Positions 804 through 29,090 of a DNA stretch of 64,000 nucleotides are shown here, in pieces. The notes beneath the pieces are model-generated. The model had not been told where the DNA came from. It worked only from the letters and a program-made list of their open reading frames with translations, and ran no database searches. Within the stretch, counting starts at the first letter, position 1; each line of letters begins with the position of its first letter. The position numbers and the translations under genes were made by a program. Origin of the DNA: Tubulanus polymorphus (taxonomy: Eukaryota; Animalia; Nemertea); assembly GCF_964204645.1 (NCBI RefSeq), contig NC_134026.1, positions 15,162,150-15,226,149 of the forward strand. Reading direction: 5' to 3'.

Positions 804-3425
804 TTAAGGCTGATAAAGTGACAAGTCCGGATAAAGACCTGACCTCCCACCTGGTCTCCCAGCTAAACTAGATGCATCAATATTTCGAATCATGTCTTGA
901 GAATATTGAATCTCATGAGGTATACCTTTATCTTCACTGATCGACAAAGGAACCAAAAGATCGTGATGTTTAACATATATCCGTAAAGTAAATGATGAGC
1001 TCATAATCAATCTTCCAATTCGCCTATATAGAGAAGGCTTGACCGGAATTTTATCCGGAAAATCAATAGCAATTCCATCATACTGAATTTTACAAGGTGT
1101 AACCCAATCAAGATTGATAAATAATTTAAAGAAATGAGAATTACAATGTAGCTTACGTAAAGCAGGGGATCCAAGTAAGGAAATACTGCCCGCACAGGCA
1201 TTAAGATCAATTAATGGAAGTAAGATACATTCATTCCAATCCGAAATCTCTAAAAGTAGTTGTGATTTACAACGTTGAACCATATTACGCCTGCCCCTTA
1301 GAAAGGTAAATAGGTATTTAATATCATAACACAGGAAATGCAACGCACAGTAGATAATAGCCAGAAGAACTATCGTGTCAACTAGAAAATTGGAATCGTC
1401 GTCAATTAGCGATTGAGCAACCCGCGAAGACTGTTCTAAAAATGAAATAGTCCGATTAGACTGTATAACCGTTGCCCCAGCAAGTGGTGCTGCATGAGCT
1501 GCACCCAAGGCTGCAACCGGAAAAATACCCCCTGGATTATACCGTATCATGAAGAAAATATAAACTGACATAGCAAGCGCCGCTATGCTCAGAATAGTAG
1601 GAACCGATATAATGCCTATAGACGATGGAGATGAAAATATATGTCGCAAATTATCTTTAGCTAGTTCATTCTTTAACGCGTCGGCCTTTGAGGCGAACAA
1701 ATCTACATTAGACTTATGCGTTGAAGCCAATTTCTTAAGATCCGTTGAAAATTTAGCGTCCTTTGATGCTACCAAATCCCATGATTCTTTATTCAGTTTT
1801 AAGGGTGGAACCTCAACCATGGGCGCTTTCGATAACTCATTCCCCCTTATCTTTCTCAAATCTGCAGCATTAGAGAACAACGAATGCAGCACAGGTAAAT
1901 TTACTACATGCAAAACAGTTTTATCCTCCTTTCCAATATGACAACCTGTGAGTTTATAAGGGATCCGAAAAGATGACGCAATTATAGAGCAAAAACAAGG
2001 GATTGTCATTACGCACAACCTGCAACCATTGATAGACTTAACCTGTCGGTCAGAACAATGCATAGTCCAAACTTCGTCAGCAGATGACAGTAAATAACGC
2101 CCATCCGCTAATTCATAACTACCTTCAAACAGTAACGCTTCCTCATATCTAATGTCACACAATTTCATTATAGCCTCAGGTTGGTCCCAAAATAGCGCTG
2201 ACGCACACGTTAATTTATGACGGGAATTGAGAGATTTAGTTGTACTACACACTTTAAGGTCTCTACCGTTGCAGGAAAGTAAAAAATCACTATCGAATTC
2301 GGTATAATATTCGTTATCACTTGTAACGGCGATATACTGAGGTAAACCAAAAATTTGAGTCGTATTAGCACTAGTGGCATTCGACGGTACAGGTAATGTA
2401 TCAATATGATAAACATCCATAAAACCAGCCAAACTATGGATGGGAATGGCGATCGTTATATATAAATACGTTTCAGTCTGCGTGAACGTGATATCCCGCA
2501 TTTGATAATAAAAACTAGGCTGACTATGCGTAACCTTAAAACTAGGATAATGATCGCTGAGAATATCCTGTACATTATTAATTACTTTATTGATCTGTTC
2601 AGGACCCACGAGAGAAATAGGCAAAAAGCCATCCAATAATAACTGAGTTGCCTGTAGAAAATTCTCCGACTGGCCAACTACTACCCCAAAACGGTATTGG
2701 TAGTCAACCAAGTTCCTCATTAAAATGGACAAAGCCGAAACTGTGACATTTAAACGATCCAATTTATGAAATATTTCCTTCCGAGAATTTCGGTACTCTA
2801 CAGTCAAAATATTATAAGAATCGGCAAACCTCTTAATTGTTTCATGATTCTCTTTAATGGCCACCATAGCATTATCAAGCCTTTCGTTAGTTGTGTTCAT
2901 GAATGAATGAAGCAACTTGCCGTCTTGTACAACCTGATCAGCCAAGGCTGTTACCCCTGACTCCACTTTGAGGACATGTAACCTAAGTGCGTCCACGTCC
3001 TCTTCAGTAGCCGTGCCAAATAGCGATTTCGCAAAATTCCCTACAAAGTTTAATAAAGCTCTTTTCCCACGACCACTTGCCCTAACAGGAATCAAAGATT
3101 TAACGGTATTCATATTAGCGTTAAGCCGTATTCGTGTTTCTTTAATTTGAGAATTTAATCGCTCAATAATCGTATTTAACATCCCACAACCGTTATACGG
3201 GTGAAAATGATAATGTATAGGGCATGATAGAGGGGTTATAATATCTAGGTCAAATTTAGGCCAGGGAATACAGAAGGTATGCCTATACTTGGAAACACCA
3301 TTAAGAATATTTGTGAACTTATTGAAGACAATTCCCCAATTCAACATAACAACTGAATTCGCCGAAGTGTCAACCGGTTCCAACGTCGTCATGTAAACAG
3401 CCAGTAATAAAATGTAAAGCCTCAT
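804..3425 (-). CDS. env: Envelope glycoprotein, baculovirus-F/errantivirus class I fusion type, with an extra C-terminal membrane module (873 aa)
   Basis: Signal peptide MRLYILLLAV; furin site RGKR (3071-3060) followed by an F-type fusion peptide ALLNFVGNFAKSLFGTATEEDV; heptad region; Cys-rich ectodomain; TM IGIISVPTILSIAALAMSVYIFFMI. The ORF is uninterrupted. Confidence 0.9.
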   Translation of the reverse strand: MRLYILLLAVYMTTLEPVDTSANSVVMLNWGIVFNKFTNILNGVSKYRHTFCIPWPKFDLDIITPLSCPIHYHFHPYNGCGMLNTIIERLNSQIKETRIRLNANMNTVKSLIPVRASGRGKRALLNFVGNFAKSLFGTATEEDVDALRLHVLKVESGVTALADQVVQDGKLLHSFMNTTNERLDNAMVAIKENHETIKRFADSYNILTVEYRNSRKEIFHKLDRLNVTVSALSILMRNLVDYQYRFGVVVGQSENFLQATQLLLDGFLPISLVGPEQINKVINNVQDILSDHYPSFKVTHSQPSFYYQMRDITFTQTETYLYITIAIPIHSLAGFMDVYHIDTLPVPSNATSANTTQIFGLPQYIAVTSDNEYYTEFDSDFLLSCNGRDLKVCSTTKSLNSRHKLTCASALFWDQPEAIMKLCDIRYEEALLFEGSYELADGRYLLSSADEVWTMHCSDRQVKSINGCRLCVMTIPCFCSIIASSFRIPYKLTGCHIGKEDKTVLHVVNLPVLHSLFSNAADLRKIRGNELSKAPMVEVPPLKLNKESWDLVASKDAKFSTDLKKLASTHKSNVDLFASKADALKNELAKDNLRHIFSSPSSIGIISVPTILSIAALAMSVYIFFMIRYNPGGIFPVAALGAAHAAPLAGATVIQSNRTISFLEQSSRVAQSLIDDDSNFLVDTIVLLAIIYCALHFLCYDIKYLFTFLRGRRNMVQRCKSQLLLEISDWNECILLPLIDLNACAGSISLLGSPALRKLHCNSHFFKLFINLDWVTPCKIQYDGIAIDFPDKIPVKPSLYRRIGRLIMSSSFTLRIYVKHHDLLVPLSISEDKGIPHEIQYSQDMIRNIDASSLAGRPGGRSGLYPDLSLYQP

Positions 3426-3460
3426 GGTAGTATCCTAAAAGAGAACGAAATATAGTTACT
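3426..3460 (-). promoter_or_regulatory. Splice acceptor and Kozak context for a subgenomic env mRNA
   Basis: Minus strand reads gtaactatatttcgttctcttttAG|gatactaccATG: branch-like site, polypyrimidine tract, and AG 9 nt before the env ATG. Confidence 0.7.
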
Positions 3461-3477
3461 ACATTCCGTGAACCAAC

Positions 3478-4401
3478 TTATTCCTTTAGTTCCTTCGTTT
3501 TAAAATAGTTCTCAATTAAACTCGGGTTTAATATATTTTCCTCAGGTTCGAAAGTAGACTCGCCTTTCGTATAACCCTCCCACCATATCTTAAAATGGCG
3601 TTTACCATTGATAACTTTATCACCTAAAATCTCTTTAACTATAAAAATGTCATCTGGAATATCAACTAACTCATCTTCCTGATTTGCTAAATCCGATCTT
3701 AAAGGTTCGCCAAAACAAGCGTCTTGATCTCCTATTGGAAGATCGTCCCTGTGAACAAACTTCTTCAACCTATCTGCTGCTATAGGACTTTTCATATATT
3801 TACCAGTTTTAACACATTTGACTCTAAATGTAGAGGGACCTATTGACTTTACAATCTGGAACGGTCCACGATAACGCTTTTGTAACTTCCTAGTCAACCC
3901 TTTCTTAAAATTTGGAAAGAAAACCCAACAGTGGTCCCTAACTTCAAAGTTGACCGGGGTAGCATGTTTATCGCTGATCTTTTTGAATGCAGCTTGTGCC
4001 GTAAGGATCGCACCTTTAGCTATCTTGTAAACATACCGTAATTTATCTTGGGCCAGTCTGACATGTGTGTTTATCTTTAGAGGATTATACATAGGTTCCA
4101 GTAATGCACTATCTAGCGGCGTGTTCGGATGCCTTAAAAACATTAAGTAAAATGGACTATAATTCGATATTGACTTCATTGGACTAGTATTATACGCAAA
4201 GACTGCAGCGCGCAAGTAAGTGGTCCAATCGGTTTGATTATCAGAAATCATCATAGATAATAAGGATTTAATTGACTTGTTCGTAACTTCACAGAGACCA
4301 TTGCATTTAGGATTGAATGAAGCAGTCTTCTTATGTGTAATATTCGAGAATTTAAGTATTTCCTCCACAATCTCACTTAAGAAATTACTTCCGCGATCAC
4401 T
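3478..4401 (-). pseudogene. pol: Integrase C-terminal half with GPF motif and chromodomain (truncated pol)
   Basis: SDRGSNF...NPKCNGLCE (second D and the E of DDE), FAYNTS, SPFYLMF, RYRGPF, then a chromodomain (FIVKEILGDKVINGKRHFKIWWEGY...STFEPEENI). Confidence 0.92.
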
Positions 4402-4600
4402 TAATTTTTTATTCAAATCTATTCAAAATATAAAGTATTCTCTTTTTGAAAAGATATATTAGAATTCTAATAAAATCAAAATTAAAATAATGGCTAGTTA
4501 ATGATATGTAATTTTTAATACTTTCTATTTAAATAAGGATTCAATACCTCACTACTTTTGTCTATCTATTAGGAGCAGTTACTATTACTGTCCAGATAAG

Positions 4601-5156
4601 TCATTTCGGGTTCTCGATATTAATTTCCTCAACGTATTGTTCATTATTTGGATCATTGTTCCATAATTCAACAAATTTCTTTGCTTTATCTAACTGATCT
4701 AAATATAACTGTAAATCTAGTTTATTTCCTTGACTAATATTTTCTACTTTTTCTAAAGGTCTTAGATTCTTCCAATTCCAAATTAGCTTTTTATTGTAAT
4801 CATCATCCATATTAAATTTAGATACAGGCAAAACGTGATCAATATGAAAATAATTACCATAATTATTAATATTCATTTTATCATCGAATTGATATATAAT
4901 CCATGATTTTAAGAATTCATCTGAACAATCCAATAAATTTGTTAGTGTTTCTGAGTGATTATCTTTACTGAAAAATTTTGATACTTTAGATCTTAAACAT
5001 TTTCTCATTTTAAAATTAAAATCTGTTTTATACCTTATAACTTTTATCATCTTTAGAATTCTTATCTTTATTATATTCTGTTAGTGTCTTATATATTTTA
5101 CACTTAGAACATTTCTTATGCGCAATATTTATGGTTTGTGTCAGTTTACTTTCCAT
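4601..5156 (-). pseudogene. Giant-virus (NCLDV)-type HNH endonuclease, frameshifted or internally deleted
   Basis: ATG at 5156 gives MESK...KKCSKCKIYKTLTEYNKDKNSKDDK (zinc-ribbon N-terminus), then a frame change into ORF 5050-4601 with NYGNYFHIDHVLPVSKF...WNWKNLRPLEKVENISQGNK. Intronless and very AT-rich. Confidence 0.7.
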
Positions 5157-5380
5157 TTATATGCAAATGTTTTATTAAAATTGATAAACATGTAATAATC
5201 CTTTTAACAATCTCATTCTCTTTCTCTTCATCCCTTTTAAATTTTAAGTATTAAGTTAAGTTAAGTTAAGTTCATCTAAATTGGTTACTGAATGATTGAT
5301 TACACGTATCACATTTATATATTTCTGTTTCATTCTTTAATTCATCTAATTTAGTTTCTAATATATCATCTTTTTTTTTA

Positions 5381-5922
5381 CTATTACTATTACTATTACT
5401 ACCACTACCTCTACCTCTACCTCTACCTCTACCTCTACCTCTACCTCTACCTCTACCTCTACCTCTACCTCTACCTCTACCTCTACCTCTACCTCTACCT
5501 CTACCTCTACCTCTACCTCTACCTCTACCGCTACCGCTACCGCTACCGCTACCGCTACCGCTACCGCTACCGCTACCGCTACCGCTACCGCTACCGCTAC
5601 CGCTACCGCTACCGCTACCGCTACCGCTACCGCTACCGCTACCGCTACCGCTACCGCTACCGCTACCGCTACCGCTACCGCTACCGCTACCGCTACCGCT
5701 ACCGCTACCGCTACCGCTACCGCTACCGCTACCGCTACCGCTACCGCTACCGCTACCGCTACCGCTACCGCTACCGCTACCGCTACCGCTACCGCTACCG
5801 CTACCGCTACCGCTACCGCTACCGCTACCGCTACCGCTACCGCTACCGCTACCGCTACCGCTACCGCTACCGCTACCGCTACCGCTACCGCTACCGCTAC
5901 CGCTACCGCTGCCGCTACCGCT
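5381..5922. repeat. Compound hexamer microsatellite (CTATTA)n-(CTACCT)n-(CTACCG)n, reading poly(SG)/poly(RG) on the minus strand
   Basis: Directly visible near-perfect tandem arrays. Confidence 0.98.
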
Positions 5923-7197
5923 ATTGAATAAAACATATTCGTTATTGTTCTTATTTACACTTTCATTTTTTCTCAAAAAATGAAGTTGTTGGATAATCTA
6001 CAGTGATCGTGTTTGACGCTTCAAAAATTCGTCATGGAATTTTAATAAAACTACTTTTGATTGATTTTCTGATCTAATCTGGACAGGAAATGTATCAGCC
6101 TAGTGCTAAACGTGGTATCTATAAAAGAATTTGAAATAAACGATTTAATCTAGGGTTGCTTGGTCCTGCAATGACCAGTCAAACGTCTCACAATGACCAT
6201 TTTGAAACGGCTGTTTAGACTGTTATTACTGCTTTTCCGCTTCAACTTTATGAATATATGCGTTCTCGAACGGTCCTAGACCAGATATAAACACACTTTA
6301 GTTGTTGCCAGGCCCCATGGGGTAAAGCACCGGTCACCTAAAAATTGAATATTTTCTATCGATTTATCTTTAAAATTCAGCTACTATCTCGTGCATTTTT
6401 ATTCCCAATCATCGCACATATGCAGAAAGCAACGATTTAGCATGAAATGGTTACAGATAGTGAGGGGATATTATTTTCTATTCCTTGTTGAAAGATCGTT
6501 TTTCAGTCTTTTTGGCCAAATTGAAATATGCACCGTACAGTAGCGCCACTGCTCCCATCGAACGGTCTCCACACTTTCACGTCAGTAGGCCTACCGCCGT
6601 AATATTCTGCAGAATTAATTCTTACTCTTGTTGAATCGAGCTTTTTGGCTGGTGGGTATGAAATGCTTTTCAAAGTTTAATAGGCCTAATGCCTGCCCCT
6701 TTAAGCTTGAGGTCTATGATTTTGCCTGAAAGGTTCATGAGACAATCTGACGCCAAGTATTAGTCAGTGTTGTATTCACGACGACGACGTATTCACTCAT
6801 CATTATCAATATCATCATCACAATGACAATCAATTCAATGCGTTGATGTTTATAATGTTGTAGGCCTATTCAATCGCGACTGATCCAACGACAATCCAAC
6901 AAAGAATAAGCCTACTACAAAACATGAATAGGCTGCTACTAAACAATGCTGCATTGTTAACTCAGCGTTATTAAATTCCGACCTTTTATTTTCAACACAA
7001 AATGAATTTTGTAGGGTGCCCTTACTAGGCCTAGAGGAGTAGAGGCCACAAAATTGACACTTATAGTGTCTATTTCAACTTTAGAGCATATCAAGTGACC
7101 TAGCTCAGTCAGTTTGTTGATGGTACATACCATGATTTGAAAGTTTAACTAAAGTTGAAATGGACATTAGGCCTAGGCCTAATCCTAATCACAAGGC

Positions 7198-7504
7198 CAC
7201 AGGAGTTTGGCGATGGCCTCGAATTTTGCTTCCAGGTTGTTGATAACCTCGCGAGACTGGCGCTAAATTTAAACTGCAAATAAATTCAAAATATCACAGA
7301 AATACCTTGTGTTGATAATGTTTATTTATCTGCTAGGCCTAGGCCTATATAAATTCTGATAAACAATTGTGTTAAGGATCAGTATCAGATGGTCATGACA
7401 CTTTTAAGGCTGTGATATTTTGAATTTATTCGTGGCTGGCGCCAGTCTCGCGAGATTATCAACAACCTAGAAGTAAAAGACAAGCCCATGACCAAACCCC
7501 TGTG
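7198..7504. mobile_element. MITE-like palindromic element (~307 bp)
   Basis: Left arm cacaggagtttgg...ggttgttgataacctcgcgagactggcgc...aataaattcaaaatatcacag is inverted at ctgtgatattttgaatttatt...gcgccagtctcgcgagattatcaacaacc...ccaaacccctgtg. Confidence 0.75.
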
Positions 7505-7808
7505 CACTAGGTTTACCAGATAGGCCAAGGCCTTATTTGGAATTAAGAGGGCACACAATAAAAATGTTAGTTTTTTATCAGTCAGGAATTTTAGAAATGT
7601 TCAGGCGGAATGTTTTTATTTTCTATTTTTGACAATCACGAATAAATGATGTTTCAATTGATTGTCCGCATGCTGCACCTAAATTTTCAACCACCAATCT
7701 TCACAAATTTCAAATAGGCCTACAGCGAGGTTATTTGGTTAAATTTAGGCCTACCAAGGCCCTATTGACATTTTTGAATTCAAACCTCTAATAGAAGATC
7801 GATTCCTG

Positions 7809-9838
7809 TGTAGCGGAAATTCGTTTCACTTCGTTCTGTTCTTTTTATTTTCCAGCTGCAGAGTCCTCCCCAGCTCAGTCTAAAATTCATATTAAATTCC
7901 TATTAAAAGTTTGTATGATGTAAAATAAAACCTTATAATGTATTTGTAACTCTGAGACAAGAATGTTTAATGCTTTGGACTTCGGTCTGGTGGATTAGAA
8001 ACTATTTTTATTTCTATCTTAATGAAATATTGTATGATTTAATCTGAATTCAAAAACTGTACCTAAAGACCTTTTCTATGTGTTCGGGTCACTCCCGGTT
8101 TGTATTTTTCGAGTTAATGTGCCTAAATCGATGTTCCCGTGCTTAAATCGATATTTTTATGCTGTGCTCTGTGCCCGAGATGGCGCCACTATACGGTTCT
8201 TAATTATATTGTGTGCTCGGGGTGCTTTGTTTTAACCAATTAGATGGGGTTACGTCATAATCTGGGCTCTATAAAAGGCAAAAATGTGCTTTATTAATTA
8301 GTCTCGGTGCACATTCTTAGGTGTGTATTACTAAGATTTTGAACTATGGGGGGAGGGATTAATCTAATTTTCTTAGTAAGTCATACTTAGCACTGATTCT
8401 CTTTAAGTATTTCTTGGTCCTTATTCTCAAAGTTGTTTTTCTTCCAAGATGTTTTCGGAAAACAATCTTTCAGGGTTCAAGGAGGTTTTCTCCTTCGAAT
8501 TATTCCCCGAAAGTATTCTTCTTTCCGATTTCCTCTCTTGGTTTTTCCCTCAACTTTTGAGTTTTCGGAGTAGTGACCATCTCTTACATAAACATAATAG
8601 GAAGAATGATTAAATAAATACTTAACTGGAACTATGATTAAATATAGCGAAAATTCTTATCTTTATTAAGAGCACTTAGAGTTACATCTTCTTTAGCGTA
8701 AAACGAGCGCAGGGTTTAAAAGTAACTATTGTTGAGTCGTAATGTTAGAATATCTGAAATCTTTATTCCTAATACTATTGAATTCTGGTGCGATTCGTGC
8801 ACTTGTATTAAGGGCAATATGCCCTTGTTAATCTCCTCCTTTGGTGGCCGGTTGGCCATCTTATCTACCTTAAATGTTGTAAATAAGAGATAACCTATAT
8901 ATATTGTTGTTATATATGTATATATTGTTCATTGTTCGAATATTTCCAAGAAATAATAAATAGTATTCAAGAGAATATTATCATATACATAAAATTCTAA
9001 ATCTTTGCCTTTTTCCCTAAACTATTTTTGTGGTGTCGGATTTACTATCAATTGAGGAAAGGATTTTCTTGTGCATTTTTGGGATTCTGTGACACCATAA
9101 AATATTCTTGAAGAATCTTGTGGGTTGGAGAGTTTAGGGCATCATGTAAGTCTTCAAAAAGGGGAAGCATTGAGGGCACCCTCTAGTGGGAGAGGCCAAA
9201 AATTGGTGAATGCTCCTCGTTTTATTTAGTTGGTATCTATTATTCTTTTTGAAGCTAAACGCCTGATCAGGTCGGCTGTGGAGGCCGGAAATACTTGTAG
9301 CGCTGGACGCAGTCCTGTATTTCCTCCTCAGTCGGAGAGAAAGCTAGGGGATTTTTATTTTATTTGACTCATTCATGATTCTTCTATTAATTCTTTTGGT
9401 CACAGTTTTTCATACATGCACACGCCTTTTTCATGGGTGATTTGTGAGGACATTCAGTCACCCGTGTTACCATTATGACTTATCACTGAGAATTAGGACT
9501 CCTTTAAGTATTCTCACTCACCAGAGGAAGACTTGACATATTTTTGCGCGTTAAATCTCATGGAGGAAAACAAGAGAATTTTCCCCTTCTAGCTTCTCTA
9601 CCTCCCAGATGCTAGTGACATGAGCGAACCCTAGAAGCGACGCCTATATGCAACTTTTTCCTTAAATGTATAGGATTATAGAAAGAGAGAGAGAGAATTA
9701 CCTGTATTCCCTCTTGGTCGAGGAAATTCCGAGAGTTGAGACCTTAGACTTGACATTATGAATTTTAACGGAAACGGAAGTAGATTTTTGTAGTCACTTG
9801 CCAGAGCACGCTACCCCGAATCCCGGTATTCCGCTTCA
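7809..9838 (+). repeat. 5' LTR (2030 bp)
   Basis: Direct repeat of 16153-18168. By eye it differs by about 5 substitutions, one 2-bp indel and one short replacement. Confidence 0.98.
8236..8276 (+). promoter_or_regulatory. Putative LTR Pol II promoter (CCAAT, CRE-like TTACGTCA, TATAAAA)
   Basis: CCAAT 8236-8240, TTACGTCA 8250-8257 and TATAAAA 8270-8276, in canonical order. Also present in the 3' LTR. Confidence 0.6.
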
Positions 9839-9840
9839 AA

Positions 9841-9859
9841 TGGTGGCAGCGGTGGGATT
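9841..9859 (+). promoter_or_regulatory. Primer binding site complementary to tRNA-Leu 3' end
   Basis: TGGTGGCAGCGGTGGGATT lies 2 nt after the LTR and is the reverse complement of AATCCCACCGCTGCCA-CCA of metazoan tRNA-Leu(AAG/TAG). Confidence 0.9.
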
Positions 9860-10138
9860 TTCTTCGATATAAGCACATACGTGCATTATTACTATTTTTT
9901 TTTATCGATACGTTGTAGAGGTTTAGCCTCCCTTGGTGAGTGAGTCTCCGTAGAGTAATATAATCCGACACCCTCCCTTTTCTCTTATCATTTGAACTAC
10001 ATTAAACTATAACGGTTAGGTCAGGAAGTTTAGTTAGGTAGAAACCACAGCAGAGTTTGTTTATCGTTTTTCCGTGATAAAACTTTCTTTCATTCTTTTC
10101 ATAGCGTATTTGTATGTGAGTCTTTCGTGTGAATAAGA

Positions 10139-11110
10139 ATGAGTCGTCCGGCTACCCGCTCCATAACTAGATCTCTTGATAGAAGTAGAAGTGCTGAAGA
10201 TATTCGCCATTTAGCCGAAGCCAGGGATGAACCGGGTATACAGAGTCTGTCTAGGGGTGACGGACCTCGTGTTAATTCCTCGGCGATGGATGTAGTATGT
10301 CCAAATGTTTCCTCCGAGGCCTACAATTATAAAATGAAACCTGAAAGTTATAATGGTGATACTAGCTGGTCTGATTACCGGTTAAGTTTTGAGACCGTTT
10401 CTCGTATTAACTCGTGGCCTGATCATGCAAAAGCCGATTATCTTTTTGCTTCACTTCGGGGTGCAGCTAGACAGTTGGTCTGTGCAAAACTTTCCTCAGG
10501 TGAAGCACTTAATTACTTTGAGATGTGCAAAGTTCTTGAATCAAGGTTCGGCAAAGGTGCCCATTCTCAGACCTATTTGGCTGAGCTCAAGAATCGCCGC
10601 CGTAAAAGACATGAATCCTTGAGAGAGTTGGGTCAATCTATTCTTGTTTCATGTGCACTTGCGTACCCAGATTTTCCGGGGGACCAACGCGAACAGATGG
10701 CGCATATGCATTTTATTGAAGCTTTAGAGGATAAGGAAATGAGATTAAAACTGTGGCAAACCAACTACCAAAGCTTGGACGAGCTTATTAGTTTCGCTCT
10801 ACGAATAGAGGGTATTCAGCTTATGGAAAATGAGCGGGAGGATAGATCCAATATTCCTCTTTATCAGGTTCGCTCTTCCGAGGCTGCTAGAAATGAGATT
10901 ACGCGCCTGCGTCAGGATTTTGAGAGGCTTAACGCTAATATCAGTAAAGTCGTGTCGCAACAAAATGACTATCCTGAGTACAGGTTCAAGCAGTGTTATC
11001 GATGTTTAAGATATGGCCATTTAGCGCACCATTGTAGGAACCCCCCTTCTTCTCATCCTCATAGAGAGAGTTTAAACGAGAAGCGGCTGGTCCAACAGGG
11101 GAAAGATTAG
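10139..11110 (+). CDS. gag: Gag (capsid plus CCHC zinc knuckle), 323 aa
   Basis: KPESYNGDTSWSDY...L.G.A capsid motif and zinc knuckle CYRCLRYGHLAHHC. Confidence 0.95.
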   Translation: MSRPATRSITRSLDRSRSAEDIRHLAEARDEPGIQSLSRGDGPRVNSSAMDVVCPNVSSEAYNYKMKPESYNGDTSWSDYRLSFETVSRINSWPDHAKADYLFASLRGAARQLVCAKLSSGEALNYFEMCKVLESRFGKGAHSQTYLAELKNRRRKRHESLRELGQSILVSCALAYPDFPGDQREQMAHMHFIEALEDKEMRLKLWQTNYQSLDELISFALRIEGIQLMENEREDRSNIPLYQVRSSEAARNEITRLRQDFERLNANISKVVSQQNDYPEYRFKQCYRCLRYGHLAHHCRNPPSSHPHRESLNEKRLVQQGKD

Positions 11111-11130
11111 CTGACTTTGGTGTGTCCCCT
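11071..11130 (+). promoter_or_regulatory. -1 ribosomal frameshift signal (U UUA AAC plus predicted pseudoknot)
   Basis: Heptamer TTTAAAC 11071-11077 is in X XXY YYZ register of gag. The -1 frame is open from there into pol. Stem cggctggtc/gattagctg has a loop agggga that can pair with tcccct. Confidence 0.8.
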
Positions 11131-14100
11131 TCAAAAGTAGTTCCTTCGGTTAAATCGGATATCAACTTACCTAGTTCCATGTATATTCCTGCCTCGATTT
11201 GGGGAGTTCAGGTCAAATACCTTGTAGATACTGGAGCTCACGTAACTATTCTTAGCCGTCATGTCTATTCTAAACTTAGAGACAAAATTAAACTATGTAA
11301 TTCTAGTGTAAATTTAAGAGCAGCTGATAATCTTCCAATCAAGGTTTTAGGATCTGCCGTCATACCTATAGGTTTATTCGACTCCAGTATCACCTGGGAA
11401 GTCGTCGTGGCGGACATCAAAGATGACGCCATTCTCGGAATGGATTTCTTGTCAGCATATGACTGTCATCTTCACCCTAGGCATCAGACAATCACGTGCC
11501 AGGGTCATCAGATCAGTGTTGAAAATTCTCCTTCTAATCCTGTGTTAGTAAGAAGTAAAGATAAAATCAAGGTTCCCCCTCTAACGGAGGTAATCATTCC
11601 TTGTTATAAGAGAGGTTCTCATTCATTGGCCAAATGGGCTATTGTTGAATCTAATCATAATTGGAAATTAGGTATTGATCTTTGTGTAGCTCGGAGCATA
11701 ATTGATACTGATTGTGAAGCGATCCCCGTCAGGGTGGTCAATTTAAGTGATTCTTCACGTATCATTTATCAGAATTCCCCTCTCGCTATCCTCTCAGGAG
11801 TAAGAGCTGTATGGTCTGAATCCGATTCAGTGTCTAAGGTAGAAAGTACTTACCCGGAGAGTCTCAAGGATAAAAATCAAGCGGAGCCCGATCACCTCAA
11901 AGATCTTATAAAACGTAGTTGCGAAGGGTTGGATCCGATACAGTCCAATCAAGTTAAGAAACTGATTTTGAAATACTCCGATGTATTCGCTAAATCTGAC
12001 TTGGATTTGGGAGAAGCCATGGGGGTTGAACACACTATTGACACGGGACATCTTCCGCCTATTAAACAGAAAGTTCGGCGGGTCCCTCAGGCTAAGCAAC
12101 CTGAATTGAATTCATTATTAGGTAAAATGCAACAATCTAACGTGATTGAAAAGAGCAATTCTGGCTGGAATTCCAGTATCGTACTAGTCACCAAGCCAGA
12201 CGGTTCGCTCCGATTGGTTAATGATTTCCGAGATTTAAACCAACACACGGTTGCCGATGCCTATCCATTACCTAGAATAGACGATACTATCCGATCTATG
12301 TCGGGTGCTGTTTTCTTTTGTCAAGCCGACCTACAGAGCGGCTATTGGCAAGTTAAATTATCAGAGAATGACCGTGGGAAGACTGCATTTGCTACCCCTC
12401 ATGGGTTTTATCAATATCGTAAACTACCTATGGGATTGAAAAATTCTGCCGCTACTTTTGAGAGACTTATGGAAAGAGTTCTCGAGGGTCTTTTGAATGA
12501 CATTGTTTTAGTTTATTTAGATGACATCATTGTTTATGGGCGTGATTTTGAGACCATGTTGACTAACCTTGAGAAAGTTTTTATTCGTCTTCGTTCAGCT
12601 AATTTGAAACTCAAGCCCAAAAAGTGTAATTTCTTCCGTCGTAGAGTTCAATTCCTTGGTCATGTTGTTTCTGACAAAGGTGTCTCCTGTTCGGAAGAGA
12701 AAATCAAAGCTATTAAAGATTGGGTTAGACCCTCTACTCAAACCGAGACTAGACAATTCCTCGGTTTGGCTAGCTATTATAGGGCATTTTGTCCTAATTT
12801 TGCTTCCATAGCTAAGCCACTTCATTCCTTGACTGAGAAGTACAAGGTGTTCCTGTGGACTGAGGAGTGTGAGACTTCTTTCCTTAAACTTAAGGAGATG
12901 TTAATAACAGCGCCGGTACTAGCTTTTCCTGACCCTAAGCTTCCGTATATTCTGGACACGGATGCCAGTGGCTGGGGTATAGGTGGCGTTTTGTCTCAAC
13001 TGGACGAATCCGGTCGTGAGTGAGTCATTTTCTATGGCAGTAGAACCTTGAGTAAAACTGAGAGAAACTATTGTGTTACGCGTCGAGAGTTACTAGCTGT
13101 GGTCGTTTTTGTGAAATTCTTCCGATATTATCTGGAAGGTCATAAGTTCACGGTCCGCACCGATCACTCCTCCCTCCGCTGGATGATGAACTTCAAAGAA
13201 CCCGACGGGCAAACTGCCCGATGGCTGTCTCTCCTTTCGAGTTTCGAATTCGATATCGTACACCGTGAAGGGCGTAAGCACACTAACTGTGACGCTCTTT
13301 CTCGCACTAATTGTCCGCAGTGCCAGCGTATGGAAAGTAAATGCTCCGGTAGTAACGAGAAGCCAATCAAACTCAAAGATCTCAGGGTCAATGCAATTTC
13401 TCCTGATACACTTCCTGAGGCTGAGTCCCATGTGGCTAAATTTCTTCCCTCTGATGAGTGGGAGCCACAAAATTTGGCTCAAGCACAGCGTGCCGACCCT
13501 GAGTTTGGATGGATCTTTGATTACATTTATAGTGACTCTCGTCCGGCCTGGTCCGAGATTTCTGCTCTTAGTCCTGCAGCCAAGTTCTATTGGGCTCTGT
13601 GGAATTCCATCACAGTAATTGATGGTGTTTTGCATATAACTAAGAAGAGAGAGGGATTCCCTGACTCTGTACTTACTCTTTTACCTCTCCAATATAGAAA
13701 AAGTGTGTTCGAAAATATTCATTCCTCTGTAACATCCGCACATTTAGGTATTCGAAAGACTACATTCAGTATGCACCGACGTTTCTTCTGGCATTCTATT
13801 TTGTCAGACATTAAATCTTTCTGTCGTTGCTGTGAAGATTGTCAAGCTAGAAAGTCGTTATCTGAAAAGAGGCCCAAAGCAAAACTGATGTTATACAATG
13901 TAGGTGCTCCTCTTGAGAGAGTAGGAATCGATATCTTAGGTCCGTTACCTGAGTCCAGATCTGGTAATAGCTATATTGTGGTGGTTTGTGACTATTTCAC
14001 AAAGTGGGCGGAAGCCTACCCTATTCCCAATCAAGAAGCCGAAACAGTGGCTGAGCAGCTTGTTACGAATTTCATTAGTCGATTTGGTGTCCCTAGATCC

Positions 14101-14895
14101 TTGCATTCGGATCGCGGACAAAACTTTCTTTCCAAGTTGATGACAGAGTTATGTGCCATTTTACACATTCGCAAGACCAACACTACTCCTTATAGACCCT
14201 CTTCTAATGGTCTCGTCGAGAGATTTAACAAGACGCTAGCTCAGAGTTTGAGAACTCGTGTGAATGAGAAACAGGATGACTGGGATGAGCACTTACATTT
14301 CATTACTATGGCTTTTCGAGCTACAGTACATGATGTGACCGGATTCTCACCCAATTTTCTCATGTTCGGACGTGAAGTCGATATGCCGGTGGACCTTATA
14401 TCTGGCCGTCCAGCGAACCAGGTGGCTTTTCCGTTTACTCAGTATGTAGCTGAAATGAAGCGCGAGATAGAATCTGCATTTGAGATTGTCCGAATTAATA
14501 TAGGAAAGAGAGGAAAGAGAAATAAACGGAACTACGACTTACTTAGATCTGGGGGGAAATACAGTGTCGGGGATCAGGTATGGCTATTCCGTCCTGCTGT
14601 AGCGGTCGGCTGTAGTAGAAAGCTTTCGTCTTTCTGGAAGGGTCCATTCCCCGTCATCGAAGTAATTAATGACGTGGTATACAGGCTGTCGGTTCAGGGA
14701 AAGTCCGTAACAGCTCATTTTGATCGTCTCAAGCCGTATCATGCTGGTAACGTTTGTCCTCCTGAAATTAGAGACAAGAAAATGAGTGAAAGTAATTTTA
14801 GAAATTCTGACTTAACCCAGTCGGTGTATGATTCGTCAGATCCAGTTGTAACACGTTCGGGACGTCACATTAAGCGACCATCTCGATACAGTTGA
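11071..14895 (+). pseudogene. pol: Pol polyprotein (protease, RT, RNase H, integrase) with a single in-frame TGA at 13021-13023
   Basis: LVDTGA, YLDD, TDAS, H-H-C-C, DILGP/SDRG/ERFN and KGPF motifs. ORFs 11122-13023 and 13048-14895 share a frame. GAG TGA GTC sits where E-R-V is expected, consistent with CGA>TGA. Confidence 0.95.
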
Positions 14896-15199
14896 GATCT
14901 CTTTGTTGTTGTCTGTAAGGGTTAACCTTAGCGTTCCTAAGGGCCTGTTGGGTGCAGTGATAACTTGTACTAATCATTGAATATGTATACATAGTAGTAA
15001 TTAATCTTAAAAATTTTTCTGCTGTGGGTTTCTTATCTTTCTTGCGGTAATCTCGTGAGATGTAACTCGTTTATAGAGATGTATTCCTTCCTCCTTCTCT
15101 TGGAGGGGGTTTAAAACTATTCTCCACCCTTTTTCTGGCTAGGATGCCACCTTATATACTCACTGACAAGTGGGTTCAATTCGGGTGAAGTTACTTAAG

Positions 15200-15200
<1 letters not shown>

Positions 15201-15237
<37 letters not shown>
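15201..15237. repeat. (TA)n microsatellite just upstream of the ORF3 acceptor
   Basis: Visible TA run. Confidence 0.95.
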
Positions 15238-15240
<3 letters not shown>

Positions 15241-15276
15241 CTTTGTTTTCTCTTTTTCTATACATTTTCAGTGAAT

Positions 15277-16086
15277 ATGGACGCCCAGGACAAGTGGACG
15301 TGTCACGACTGCGGTCTTAGGCTTAGTAACACGTACAGGAAGTCGCGCCACCAGGTGTCTTGCACCTGGAAGCTTTTCGGTCGCAAAACGTATCCGGCCG
15401 GCACGGTATTTTCATGCCTTATGTGTGGATTTAGTAATCCGAAAGTGGCGAGGGTAATAACTCACATATCAAAATCGCATCGCGACCGCGTAAGAAGGAA
15501 CGGCAATACTTATGTCGGTTTGATTCGTTCGTGTGTGCCGGAGGGAGTGCCTCGGACGGTTTTCCCGGGCCTCCCTACCGCTAGTTTTGTGTCCGACGTC
15601 GGACTGGATGAGACTGGAGAATCATCGGTGTCGGAACTCCCGAAGAAGTTCCCGTTTTTTTCGTTACCGCCGCCGCCTCCTCCGCCGCCGTATTCACCGC
15701 CTCCGCCGCCTAGTTCGCCGCCTCCGCCTATCGAAACGCCTACATTGTTCGATTGTTTGAACATTCCGCTTCCAGGACAACCTGCGCTGTGCAGTTTTGA
15801 TGTATCGACGGAAATCATTCTTGACGGCATTGAGGAACCTGCAAACTCATCCTTACTCATGCGAACATCTACACCCGTACCAGCTGAAGACGCGGTTCCC
15901 GTGGAGATCAACCCTGCAGTACTTTCCGAACCTTCGTGCGCTGTCGGTAATTCTCCGGTCTCCAAGCAATGTGGCGCTGTTCGGCATGTTCACGATTTTC
16001 GCGGACACCACCTCGAGATATCGGTCCCGGTTGGAGTCCCGATTAACTGCCCGTTGTGTCTTCACCTGGTCAAATCTTTTGAATAA
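15277..16086 (+). CDS. Accessory ORF3 of the Gypsy element: two zinc-finger-like motifs, polyproline with PPPY, C-terminal HxH/CxxC motif
   Basis: Acceptor ctttgttttctctttttctatacattttcAG (ending 15271) precedes ATG 15277. Motifs CHDC-x12-H-x3-C, CLMC-x12-H-x4-H, PPPPPPPPYSPPPPP and HVH...CPLC. Stop lies 66 bp before the 3' LTR. Confidence 0.75.
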   Translation: MDAQDKWTCHDCGLRLSNTYRKSRHQVSCTWKLFGRKTYPAGTVFSCLMCGFSNPKVARVITHISKSHRDRVRRNGNTYVGLIRSCVPEGVPRTVFPGLPTASFVSDVGLDETGESSVSELPKKFPFFSLPPPPPPPPYSPPPPPSSPPPPIETPTLFDCLNIPLPGQPALCSFDVSTEIILDGIEEPANSSLLMRTSTPVPAEDAVPVEINPAVLSEPSCAVGNSPVSKQCGAVRHVHDFRGHHLEISVPVGVPINCPLCLHLVKSFE

Positions 16087-16134
16087 CCTTATATATATAC
16101 TTTACCTTTGTCGCCTTTTCTGAGCGGGTCGCTC

Positions 16135-16152
16135 AGGGCTGGTGGGGGGCTT
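16135..16152 (+). promoter_or_regulatory. Polypurine-tract-like plus-strand primer site
   Basis: G-rich agggctggtggggggc immediately before the 3' LTR TG. Confidence 0.65.
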
Positions 16153-18168
16153 TGTAGCGGAAATTCGTTTCACTTCGTTCTGTTCTTTTTATTTTCCAGC
16201 TGCAGAGTCCTCCCCAGCTCAGTCTAAAATTCATATTAAATTCCTATTAAAAGTTTGTATGATGTAAAATAAAACCTTATAATGTATTTGTAACTCTGAG
16301 ACAAGAATGTTTAATGCTTTGGACTTCGGTCTGGTGGATTAGAAACTATTTTTATTTCTATCTTAATGAAATATTGTATGATTTAATCTGAATTCAAAAA
16401 CTGTACCTAAAGACCTTTTCTATGTGTTCGGGTCACTCCCGGTTTGTATTTTTCGAGTTAATGTGCCTAAATCGATGTTCCCGTGCTTAAATCGATATTT
16501 TTATGCTGTGCTCTGTGCCCGAGATGGCGCCACTATACGGCTCTTAATTATATTGTGTGCTCGGGGTGCTTTGTTTTAACCAATTAGATGGGGTTACGTC
16601 ATAATCTGGGCTCTATAAAAGGCAAAAATGTGCTTTATTAATTAGTCTCGGTGCACATTCTTAGGTGTGTATTACTAAGATTTTGAACTATGGGGGGAGG
16701 GATTAATCTAATTTTCTTAGTAAGTCATACTTAGCACTGATTCTCTTTAAGTATTTCTTGGTCCTTATTCTCAAAGTTGTTTTTCTTCCAAGATGTTTTC
16801 GGAAAACAATCTTTCAGGGTTCAAGGAGGTTTTCTCCTTCGAATTATTCCCCGAAAGTATTCTTCTTTCCGATTTCCTCTCTTGGTTTTTCCCTCAACTT
16901 TTGAGTTTTCGGAGTAGTGACCATCTCTTACATAAACATAATAGGAAGAATGATTAAATAAATACTTAACTGGAACTATGATTAAATATAGCGAAAATTC
17001 TTATCTTTATTAAGAGCACTTAGAGTTACATCTTCTTTAGCGTAAAACGAGCGCAGGGTTTAAGTAACTATTGTTGAGTCGTAATTTTAGAATATCTGAA
17101 ATCTTTATTCCTAATACTATTGAATTCTGGTGCGATTCGTGCACTTGTATTAAGGGCAATATGCCCTTGTTAATCTCCTCCTTTGGTGGCCGGTTGGCCA
17201 TCTTATCTACCTTAAATGTTGTAAATAAGAGATAACCTCGAGGTTGTGTATATATTGTTCATTGTTCGAATATTTCCAAGAAATAATAAATAGTATTCAA
17301 GAGAATATTATCATATACATAAAATTCTAAATCTTTGCCTTTTTCCCTAAACTATTTTTGTGGTGTCGGATTTACTATCAATTGAGGAAAGGATTTTCTT
17401 GTGCATTTTTGGGATTCTGTGACACCATAAAATATTCTTGAAGAATCTTGTGGGTTGGAGAGTTTAGGGCATCATGTAAGTCTTCAAAAAGGGGAAGCAT
17501 TGAGGGCACCCTCTAGTGGGAGAGGCCAAAAATTGGTGAATGCTCCTCGTTTTATTTAGTTGGTATCTATTATTCTTTTTGAAGCTAAACGCCTGATCAG
17601 GTCGGCTGTGGAGGCCGGAAATACTTGTAGCGCTGGACGCAGTCCTGTATTTCCTCCTCAGTCGGAGAGAAAGCTAGGGGATTTTTATTTTATTTGACTC
17701 ATTCATGATTCTTCTATTAATTCTTTTGGTCACAGTTTTTCATACATGCACACGCCTTTTTCATGGGTGATTTGTGAGGACATTCAGTCACCCGTGTTAC
17801 CATTATGACTTATCACTGAGAATTAGGACTCCTTTAAGTATTCTCACTCACCAGAGGAAGACTTGACATATTTTTGCGCGTTAAATCTCATGGAGGAAAA
17901 CAAGAGAATTTTCCCCTTCTAGCTTCTCTACCTCCCAGATGCTAGTGACGTGAGCGAACCCTAGAAGCGACGCCTATATGCAACTTTTTCCTTAAATGTA
18001 TAGGATTATAGAAAGAGAGAGAGAGAGTTACCTGTATTCCCTCTTGGTCGAGGAAATTCCGAGAGTTGAGACCTTAGACTTGACATTATGAGTTTTAACG
18101 GAAACGGAAGTAGATTTTTGTAGTCACTTGCCAGAGCACGCTACCCCGAATCCCGGTATTCCGCTTCA
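16153..18168 (+). repeat. 3' LTR (2016 bp)
   Basis: Direct repeat of 7809-9838, followed by TSD CCTG. Confidence 0.98.
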
Positions 18169-18179
18169 CCTGAATGACA

Positions 18180-26246: not shown

Positions 26247-26660
26247 TACGGAAGCGATAAGGGGCCTCGAGATGACGCGTTCCAACTCGACAAGTCGCCA
26301 TATTATTGTCGACTTGACGCGATATATCGCGTCAAGTCGACATGAATGTCGATATATCGTGACGTTTTGACGACATATTTCGTTTTCTCAACCATTTTCC
26401 TCGCGACAAGTCGACATATTCATGACGACTTGAAACTCAGTCGTCATATTACTGGCGTCCTCATCTTACATTTAGACATGTCTTCAAATGACGGCTTGTC
26501 CCGTGGAAAATGAGCAAATAAGCGAAATTTGTCGTGAAAACGTCACGATATGTAGACATATTCATGTGGACTTGACACGATATATCGCGATATATCGACA
26601 TAAATATGGCGACTTGTCGAGTTTGAACGCGACAACTCGAGGCCCTTTATCGCTTCCGTA
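26247..26660. mobile_element. MITE (414 bp) with TIR TACGGAAGCGATAA(G/A)GGGCCTC and 7-bp TSD CTATATC; partial second copy at 26015-26149
   Basis: Long inverted arms. ctatatc occurs at 26240-26246 and 26661-26667. The element is absent from the other family-2 HINE copy. Confidence 0.85.
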
Positions 26661-26749
26661 CTATATCAGATTAATCGACTTAAATAGGCGAAAGCATAAG
26701 TCTTTATTACGTTATTAATTGGCCTAATTATTCAAAAGCTAATAATGTA

Positions 26750-29090
26750 GGCGACAAAACCAAAAAAATTAATTGTCGCGGGCGATAAAACCAAAATAAT
26801 CAATTGTCGCGGGCGATAAAACCAAAATAATCAATTGTCGCTGGCGATAAAACCAAAATATTCAACTGTCGCGGGCGACAAAACCAAAAAAATGAATTGT
26901 CGCGGGGGATAAATCCAAAATAATGAATTGTCGCGGGCGACAAATCCAAAATCATGAATTGTCGCGGGTGACAAAAACAAAATATTCAATTGTCGCAGGC
27001 GACAAAACCAAACTAATGAATTGTCGCGGGCGATAAAACCAAAATAATGAATTGTCGCAGGCGATAAAACCAAAATATTGAAGTGTCGCAGGCAATAAAA
27101 CCAAATTAATGAATTGTCGCGGGCGATAAAACCAAAATAATGAATTGTCGCCGGCGATAAAACCAAAATATTGAATTGTCGTGGGCGACAAAACCAAAAT
27201 ATTGTTTTGTCGCGGGTGACAAAACCAAATTAATGAATCGTCGAGGGCGATAAAACCAAAATAATGAATTGTCGCGGGCGATAAAACCAAAATAATGAAT
27301 TGTCGCTGGCGATAAAACCAAAATATTGAATTGTCGCGGGCGACAAATCCAAAATCATGAATTGTCGCAGGCGACAAAAACAAAATATTCAATTGTCGCG
27401 GGCGACAAAACCAAACTAATGAATTGTCGCGGGCGATAAAACCAAAATAATGAATTGTCGCAGGCGATAAAACCAAAATATTGAAGTGTCGCAGGCGATA
27501 AAACCGCGACAAAAAGAAAAAAAATTGTCGCGGGCGATAAAACCAAAATAATGAATTGTCGCGGGCGATAAAACCAAAATATTGAATTGTCGTGGGCGAC
27601 AAAACCAAAATATTGTTTTGTCGCGGGTGACAAAACCAAATTAATGAATTGTCGCGGGCGATAAAACCAAAATAATCAATTGTCGCGGGCGATAAAACCA
27701 AAATAATGAATTGTCGCTGGCGATAAAACCAAAATATTGAATTGTCGCGGGCGACAAATCCAAAATCATGAATTGTCGCGGGCGACAAAAACAAAATATT
27801 CAATTGTCGCGGGCGACAAAACCAAACTAATGAATTGTCGCGGGCGATAAAACCAAAATAATGAATTGTCGCAGGCGATAAAACCAAAATATTGAAGTGT
27901 CGCAGGCGATAAAACCGCGACAAAAAGAAAAAAAAATTGTCGCGGGCGATAAAACAAAAATCTTGAATTGTCGCTATTGTCGCGTGCGACAAAACCAAAA
28001 TAATGAATTGTCGCGGGCGATAAAACCAAAATAATGAATTGTCGCGGGCGATAAAACCAAAATATTGAATTGTCGAGGGCGACAAAACCAAAATATTGTT
28101 TTGTCGTGGGTGATAAAACCAAATTTATGAATTGTCCCGGGCGATAAAACCAAAATAATGAATTGTCGCTGGCGATAAAACCAAAATATTGAATTGTCGC
28201 GGGCGACAAATCCAAAATCATGAATTGTCGCGGGCGACAAAAACAAAATATTCAATTGTCGCGGGCGACAAAACCAAACTAATGAATTGTCGCTGGCAAT
28301 AAAACCAAAATAATGAATTGTCGCAGGCAATAAAACCAAAATAATGAATTGTCGCAGGCGATAAAACCAAAATATTGAAGTGTCGCAGGCGATAAAACCG
28401 CGACAAAAAGAAAAAAAAATTGTCGCGGGCGATTAAACCAAAATAATGAATTGTCGCGGGCGATAAAACCAAATATTGAATTGTCGTGGGCGACAAATCC
28501 AAAAAATGAATTGTCGCGGGCGATAAAACCAAAATCTTGAATTGTCGCTATTGTCGCGTGCGACAAAACCAAAATAATGAATTGTCGCGGGCGATAAAAC
28601 CAAAATAATGAATTGTCGCGGGCGATAAAACCAAAATATTGAATTGTCGAGGGCGACAAAACCAAAATATTGTTTTGTCGTGGGTGATAAAACCAAATTA
28701 ATGAATTGTCCCGGGCGATTAAAAACAAAATAATGAATTGTCGTGGGCGACAAAACCAAAATATTGTTTTGTCGCGGGTGACAAAACCAAATTAATGAAT
28801 TGTCGCGGGCGATAAAACCAAAATAATGAATTGTCGCGGGCGATAAAACCAAAATAATAAATTGTCGCTGGCGATAAAACCAAAATATTGAATTGTCGTG
28901 GGCGACAAATCCAAAAGATGAATTGTCGCGGCAGAAAAACCAAAATCTTGAATTGTCGCGGGTGACAAAACCAAATTAATGAATTGTCGCGGGCGATGAA
29001 ACCAAAATAATGAATTGTCGCGGGCGATAAAACCAAAATAATGAATTGTCGCGGGCGACTAAAACCAAAATTATTGATTTGTCGCGTTAT
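26750..29090. repeat. 31-bp minisatellite AATTGTCGCGGGCGA(T/C)AAAACCAAAATAATG with higher-order blocks
   Basis: Visible array. Variant units recur at ~400-450 bp spacing (e.g. ~26937, ~27340, ~27751, ~28203). Confidence 0.97.

Follow-up and report, generated by a model that had tools for sequence, protein, structure and literature searches.

An intact zinc-finger gene behind pol in a nemertean Gypsy element represents a clade-wide, modular class of accessory genes

What does an intact open reading frame do in a Gypsy retrotransposon when it occupies the place of env and yet resembles no envelope protein? The question is raised by a 64-kb stretch of the Tubulanus polymorphus genome (contig NC_134026.1, positions 15,162,150 to 15,226,149 of the forward strand), referred to here in its entirety as the window, whose own numbering is used for all coordinates. 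An earlier note, made from the sequence alone, had singled out a putative accessory gene, here ORF3, with zinc fingers and a PPxY motif, and had proposed that it encodes a regulator or a ubiquitin-ligase adaptor. We analyzed the host element, the coding capacity and conservation of ORF3, its likely mode of expression and its relatives in other Gypsy elements.

The host element and its third gene

The plus strand of the window contains a complete Gypsy LTR retrotransposon at 7809-18168. Its paired TG...CA LTRs, 2030 bp (7809-9838) and 2016 bp (16153-18168) in length and 98.9% alike, are bordered by an identical 4-bp target-site duplication (7805-7808 and 18169-18172). Immediately 3' of the 5' LTR lies a primer-binding site (9841-9859), which we take to be tRNA-Leu-like, and a G-rich run ahead of the 3' LTR forms the polypurine tract (16135-16149). 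The gene order given by Pfam is likewise that of Ty3/Gypsy elements, gag being followed by protease, reverse transcriptase (RT), RNase H and integrase. The gag gene (10139-11110) contains a CCHC knuckle, with weak matches to PNMA, zf-CCHC_3 and Retrotrans_gag, and a slippery heptamer (11071-11077) leading into the frame of pol (11065-14895). A single in-frame stop in pol (13021-13023) puts full-length Pol beyond this copy alone. The two LTRs differ by five substitutions outside one indel block, which indicates a young insertion, plus a 2-nt indel. Named RT relatives with 45-57% identity include those of scallop, amphioxus, spider, pseudoscorpion, frogs and fish.

Between the pol stop (14895) and the 3' LTR (16153) lies ORF3, a frame of 269 aa on the plus strand (15277-16086; ATG at 15277, stop at 16084-16086). 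No frame of this length arose in 2000 shuffles of the pol-LTR interval (0/2000; longest shuffled frame, 196 aa). The feature had been placed from 15238 onward, directly behind a (TA)n run (15201-15237) in the non-coding spacer (14896-15271), but the reading frame itself opens only at 15277.

The N-terminus of ORF3 is polar and basic in composition (16 K/R within residues 1-90) and carries two fingers. Finger 1 is C2HC-like (C9, C12, H25, C29; 15301-15363), aligns with finger 1 of a profile built from relatives and, judged by its pattern, probably binds zinc. Finger 2 is of C2H2 type (C47, C50, H63, H68; 15415-15480; Pfam PF23225) and continues into a basic patch; against the Pfam zf-C2H2_ZNF462 models it reached E 2.5e-5, under the curated cut-off. 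A polyproline tract follows (15667-15729; 18 prolines in 30 residues), in which Tyr139 forms both PPPY (15682-15693, residues 136-139) and YSP. Next comes an acidic Ser/Thr/Pro-rich linker (15751-15951; residues 159-225, 10 D/E vs 1 K/R), which is likely disordered on the basis of its composition and of an AlphaFold pLDDT of about 26-34 in a poor model. The protein ends in a Cys/His cluster of the form HxH...HH...CxxCxH (15970-16065; C232, H237, H239, H244, H245, C258, C261, H263), which has no Pfam match, belongs to no known family and is found in 0/21 relatives. The AlphaFold models were of poor quality (pLDDT 40.0 and 34.5), a fold search returned nothing at E<=0.001, and neither was given weight. 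With no Baculo_F match and a maximum 19-residue hydropathy of 1.37, that is, no transmembrane (TM) stretch, ORF3 does not have the make-up of an envelope protein (fusion glycoprotein, signal peptide, TM anchor). The protein features listed in the earlier note, from the finger pair through PPPY and the acidic linker to the terminal HxH...CxxC motif (C232-H263), are thus all present, and its reading of ORF3 as a non-env gene holds.

A high CpG content had also been remarked on. In ORF3 the observed/expected ratio reaches 1.33, or 1.25 once the proline tract is removed, whereas LTR stretches give 0.75-0.76 and gag and pol 0.78-0.91; no 807-nt window of gag-pol comes as high (maximum 1.07). Because CpG is also higher in ORF3 than in pol in 12/15 relatives, this richness is a trait of the class.

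ORF3 is under purifying selection. Variants were taken from unphased contigs that represent three DNA runs and several levels of divergence, all from two samples within a single study, and each variant was classed singly against the window codon. Among the 40 of 117 differences listed for 14850-16200, 34 fall inside ORF3; 26 of these are synonymous, eight non-synonymous and none a stop, and 24 affect third positions. The resulting pN/pS for the 34 listed variants is 0.10-0.13 (P 3e-10 to 3e-8), and in the remaining two forward frames the same variants would give eight and two synonymous changes. A 15-nt insertion near 15952 leaves the frame intact, the flanking spacers accept indels of 1-2 nt among copies, and one contig has a frame-breaking net 8-nt deletion in ORF3. 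Codons 3-178 hold 32 of the 34 listed variants, with just two beyond codon 178, so the C-terminal third is barely sampled. Disruption in most copies with dN/dS near 1, the outcome that was to count against an accessory gene, is not what these variants display.

The window holds several other features. A second Gypsy element on the minus strand (804-4422) retains a chromodomain integrase remnant, lacks its 5' part and carries an intact 873-aa F-type env of errantivirus type (Baculo_F E 5e-11) behind its own acceptor-like AG. The env element seems to be interrupted by a very AT-rich insert (4601-5400, minus strand), presumably DNA of DNA-virus or Polinton type, which contains a broken HNH-endonuclease-like frame (Pfam HNH_4 E 0.008) and adjoins a 12-bp tandem array. 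Broken hAT-type transposase pieces lie at 58901-60375 and 62452-62841 (Dimer_Tnp_hAT E 2.5e-6 for the latter). Two 31-bp satellite arrays in inverted orientation (26638-30492 and 42002-45215) carry a 954-nt inverted repeat, 99% complementary and 11.5 kb apart.

Signals for expression of ORF3

ORF3 is likely made from a spliced subgenomic RNA, as judged from the signals around it. A pyrimidine tract and a CAG ending at 15271 (AG 15270-15271) precede its ATG by 5 nt. When the 401 AGs in the internal region are ranked by a crude score of our own making, this acceptor, which the earlier note had called strong, is tied for 4th-5th place. In the 5' LTR the core promoter is predicted at 8270-8303, where a TATA box (8270) is followed at 30-nt spacing by an initiator-like motif with its A at 8300. 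Among six candidate donors, only the one cut after 8320 (8318-8326; nine of 11 U1 matches) would yield an ATG-free ORF3 leader, 26 nt long, whereas the unspliced leader contains 22 upstream ATGs. A second acceptor-like site (10080-10104), top-tied among the 401 AGs, ends 34 nt 5' of the gag ATG; its presence before gag (10080-10138) suggests that the message for gag-pol may be spliced as well, with most of the 2-kb LTR leader removed. On this arrangement gag-pol and ORF3 would each have a spliced message of their own, and the genome would be the RNA that retains the intron. None of the 13 DNA joints listed leads into 15272.

Acceptors in this position recur among relatives. A strong acceptor lies <=30 nt from the ORF3 ATG in 10/17 relatives with an in-frame ATG, compared with 4.3 for pol ATGs (P<0.001) and 4.8 for non-coding ATGs (P 0.005), where both score and threshold are author-made and related rows are not independent. 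Two further relatives have no ORF3 ATG, yet an acceptor stands ahead of the finger.

An internal promoter arising from the (TA)n run, for which Tor elements offer a precedent (PMC4402516, seen in part), was considered and is not favoured, as the 5' leader would be only about 7 nt. Two related elements, L068 and L071, have a TATA box about 35 nt 5' of the ORF3 ATG and no good acceptor, L071 adding a CCAAT box; in this sub-branch transcription of ORF3 may start from a promoter inside the element.

No words common to U3 and the ORF3 spacer were found beyond chance, and the repeated 9-mers of U3 were equalled in 59% of shuffles. U3 positions 8124-8265 contain a duplicated 9-mer, a repeat not beyond chance, and sites that we take to resemble YY1 and CRE motifs; a palindrome in the leader (9905-9912) is presumably DRE-like.

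Related third genes across a Gypsy clade

Similarity searches with ORF3 itself gave little. Among 413 candidates with lengths of 147-471 aa none qualified as a homologue at E<=0.01, and the PDB gave no sequence match. Residues 1-112 returned 11 matches from 1.84 billion representatives, all generic or spurious, the five examined being multi-finger proteins or repeats. Integrase-based grouping, by comparison, placed the window element in a 4-row clade with L001, L003 and L004 (= L013) at a support of 96/94, and each of these three has a Cys/His-finger ORF 3' of pol. ORF3 of L004 used as query found one relative, and BLASTP between it and the window ORF3 gave E 0.53.

A wider sample came from G001 (L012-L122), a GTDB species-representative MAG labelled bacterial that holds 108 integrase matches from animal Gypsy elements and is heavily host-contaminated. 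We examined 80 contigs of this assembly, assigning ORF3 labels ourselves by pattern search and by eye. A finger ORF3 with a low-complexity tail is present in 19 contigs, and in part in one more; 11 contigs carry a TatD ORF3 and three an SGNH-like one; two have an F-type env, seven have nothing in >=1.5 kb, and 37 are too short or unfinished to judge. A Pfam check gave C2H2-type matches for 11/19 finger ORF3s, TatD for 11/11 and a weak GDSL match for 1/3 SGNH-like ORF3s. A finger-like motif lies upstream in 9/11 TatD elements.

In the integrase tree, for which 49 rows were kept after 34 unlabelled rows of 83 had been dropped, the window element falls within a 36-row clade (SH-aLRT 90; key branch not starred). 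The ORF3s of this clade comprise 23 finger, 11 TatD and one SGNH-like, with one element having none, while finger ORF3s occur in 0/13 rows outside it. The finger label requires three changes on the tree, vs 16.3 when shuffled, and the 23 finger rows correspond to 18 clusters at 65% integrase identity. Eleven contigs from other assemblies added three finger ORF3s, one TatD and one SGNH-like, the nearest row being of the same type each time. The finger-ORF3 class is defined here, on a tree without reference sequences of the named clades MolGy, CsRN1 and Cigr-1.

The window fingers align collinearly with the relatives' profile at 5.8 and 5.7 bits, under several host zinc-finger proteins. At these scores the finger likeness is no more than generic, so class membership rests on position, architecture and tree. 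ORF3 has the build of the class: it is a sense ORF behind pol whose ATG closely follows an acceptor, with a pair of fingers at the N-terminus and a tail of low complexity. It is thus one of a clade-wide, modular class of accessory genes of Gypsy elements, a class that the earlier note had missed, and position and tree make common ancestry of the finger pair likely. Across the clade the pair looks like a targeting module with exchangeable tails (acidic/Pro/Ser, Arg-Ser, BTB or TatD).

Several variants were observed among these elements. The branch whose ORF3 closes with a complete TatD nuclease domain (L069, L072, L075, L079, L080, L081, L088, L089, L091, L092, L094, L140) mostly has a finger-like motif ahead. 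A C-terminal BTB (KCTD-like) domain is joined to the finger ORF3 in L070 (7326-9089) and L139, from two assemblies. Long Arg-Ser tails like those of SR splicing factors occur on the finger ORF3s of L053, L060 and L067, and the SGNH/GDSL-like ORF3s (L057, L063, L095, L142) are scattered over separate places in the tree. Outside the ORF3 position, L002 carries an ankyrin-repeat ORF behind env (8336-9640), the fourth gene of that Gypsy element, and L009 has gag, pol and an F-type env in a single 2387-aa frame (948-8108) on a circular contig.

Possible functions and known systems

Our preferred explanation, held tentatively, is that ORF3 is a conserved nuclear protein that raises transcription of its own element. 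A splice, most likely from the donor just 3' of the LTR start site, would generate the subgenomic ORF3 RNA; the protein, predicted to be nuclear, would bind the element's own LTR, the likely target of its two fingers, and its tail, acidic and rich in proline, would bring in co-activators of the host and thereby presumably increase transcription. The combination of a basic finger pair with a tail of this kind is typical of transcription activators, and this build, together with the absence of a hydrophobic segment, was counted in favour of LTR activation. On the other side, no candidate ORF3 site stood out beyond chance when U3 was compared with the ORF3 spacer, the one precedent that has been tested, CERV, works through RNA export, and the Arg-Ser tails of three relatives point to RNA processing. 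The two atypical fingers may bind RNA or protein instead of DNA. Of the regulator reading offered earlier, a selected accessory gene with a regulator build stands, but the ligase-adaptor part finds no support.

The main rival, possible though less probable than LTR activation, is an RNA-level role similar to that of CERV or Rev, in which fingers and basic patch bind the unspliced RNA of the element, either to help it out of the nucleus or to shift the balance between splicing and termination. Given the 22 upstream ATGs in the leader and the acceptor-like sites before gag and ORF3, the packaged genome would be intron-retaining and would need help with nuclear export; the Arg-Ser tails of L053, L060 and L067 and the YxP-rich tails, which are like the RNA polymerase II CTD repeat, also favour such a role, as does the precedent of CERV, which comes from a spliced RNA, carries a Cys finger and is indispensable for export (PMC10309623, seen in part). 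However, no CERV-like match was found in searches of Pfam, the 413 candidates, the 1.84 billion representatives and the PDB, the window tail is acidic and proline-rich rather than Arg-Ser, and no clear leucine-rich export signal is visible by eye. It is improbable, in our estimate, that ORF3 activates nothing directly and serves as a self-limiting repressor, or as a decoy that draws off silencing factors of the host, of the zinc-finger or piRNA kind. The architecture would suit these roles equally well, and the sister branch that joins fingers to a TatD nuclease fold (9/11 with the finger-like motif upstream) suggests host conflict; yet Pfam returned no known repressor domain or motif, and acidic tails activate more often.

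PPxY motifs bind WW domains, as found in NEDD4 ligases and YAP, and ORF3 might accordingly be an adaptor that recruits such partners for budding or for degradation of a host restriction factor. The PPPY does sit in a disordered context, and the clade includes a branch (L070, L139) with a BTB domain, which is a ligase-adaptor fold; those two ORF3s would be better ligase-adaptor candidates than the window gene. Shuffling, however, creates a PPxY in 34% of cases when the tract alone is permuted and in 7.8% when the whole protein is, and among related finger ORF3s the motif occurs in 1/21 vs 0.96 expected. These chance-level frequencies in tract and relatives do not support the WW-domain or ligase-adaptor reading of the earlier note. 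The element moreover has no env and ORF3 no membrane anchor. It had further been pointed out that the third ORFs of both LTR elements, taken to be spliced, carry a late-domain-like motif. The motifs exist, the neighbouring env ending near YPDL, but both lie within chance, some late motif appearing in 22% of env shuffles, and splicing is a prediction for both. The PPPY of ORF3 is most likely incidental, and we regard an adaptor function as very unlikely. Least credible of all, and largely refuted already, is a functionless captured fragment or chance frame: the lack of a close homologue among the 413 candidates or 1.84 billion representatives would agree with it, and the high CpG could mark recent foreign DNA, but pN/pS is about 0.1, chance produced no ORF this long in 2000 shuffles, slot and build recur across the clade, and CpG is higher in ORF3 than in pol in 12/15 relatives too.

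The tails of the relatives furnish one further lead. In an unbiased screen of 17 tails, YxP was the top of 1028 patterns (20 observed vs 7.8 expected; family-wise P 0.018), and YxP followed by S or T occurred 10 times vs 1.7 expected; the YxP ratios in five control sets were 0.35-1.1. Among four outside ORF3s held out from the screen, L125, L143 and L001 have no YxP and L139 has one without S/T at +3, and in the window tract a YxP arises in 59% of shuffles. The enrichment is thus a lead that was not repeated in the four outside sequences. YxP-rich tails resemble the CTD repeat of RNA polymerase II. A bolder and decidedly doubtful extension would make this large, old invertebrate Gypsy clade one of "complex" retrotransposons, each with a spliced two-finger module and swappable effectors (activation-like tail, Arg-Ser, BTB, TatD); in the finger-only branch, YxP(S/T) repeats would mimic the CTD, so that host factors for termination and processing are captured or led astray on the transcript of the element itself, an anti-termination in the manner of Tat. 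Yeast CTD mimics of the NIM type have their tyrosine motif in a disordered region, after an acidic stretch that they need (PMC7110113, seen in part), whereas most of the relatives' YxP motifs, and that of the window, have no such stretch.

In the literature searched, C2H2 or TatD ORF3s of animal Gypsy elements are not described; Repbase, supplements and subscription journals lay outside its scope, and the class may be annotated there. The available portions of the main texts of mollusc and annelid surveys (PMC6238403, PMC8556966) contain neither "ORF" nor "zinc", and those of PMC8220671, PMC13228809, PMC12440569, PMC2774666 and PMC6338049 hold no relevant ORF3 description. Self-encoded regulators are usually seen as a mark of complex retroviruses, and the tested case that this literature yielded for animal Gypsy elements is CERV. 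If ORF3 regulates its element, then a large clade of env-less invertebrate retrotransposons would govern its own expression, and many small TatD and "uncharacterised zinc-finger" genes annotated in invertebrates would be cargo of such elements. Within the clade, one targeting module comes with a natural series of swapped effectors, in which the role of ORF3 is directly testable.

Foamy virus Tas/Bel1 and HIV Tat and Rev are regulators encoded between pol or env and the 3' LTR and made from subgenomic RNA. In contrast to these, ORF3 belongs to an env-less invertebrate Gypsy element, no homology to them was found, and its regulator activity is predicted. The roles of HIV Tat and Rev are described in PMC7264820 (seen in part), which also covers the plant Tat/Ogre/Retand elements; there, too, the interval from pol to the 3' LTR holds additional conserved ORFs for which an accessory role has been proposed, but the lineage is a plant one, and its ORFs are often antisense and contain other domain types. 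With errantivirus-type env, ORF3 has in common its slot and an acceptor just 5' of the ATG (PMC13524379, seen in part), and it differs in having no Baculo_F match or TM segment and in being one third the size. The Juno and Vesta LTR elements of bdelloid rotifers have family-specific, exchangeable ORF3s at the env position (GDSL, DEDDy exonuclease, coiled-coil and transmembrane types), the GDSL/SGNH hydrolases recurring in three contigs here; "zinc" does not occur in the available portion of the main text (PMC5408684). The spliced, nuclear accessory protein CERV of the Caenorhabditis elegans Gypsy element Cer1 is, like ORF3, a non-env protein with a cysteine finger from the slot behind pol, and it regulates its own element, being needed for RNA export. 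In CERV the N-terminal half is in common with Gag exons, the finger is a putative C4 one within a folded domain, and the protein assembles into nuclear rods (PMC10309623, seen in part), whereas ORF3 has its own ATG behind an acceptor, a C2HC and C2H2 pair and a disordered tail. Non-env ORF3s are thus already known from CERV and the rotifer elements, and the finger class is a further variant, to which the single copy described here adds a new type of tail and data on selection, its mechanism remaining a proposal.
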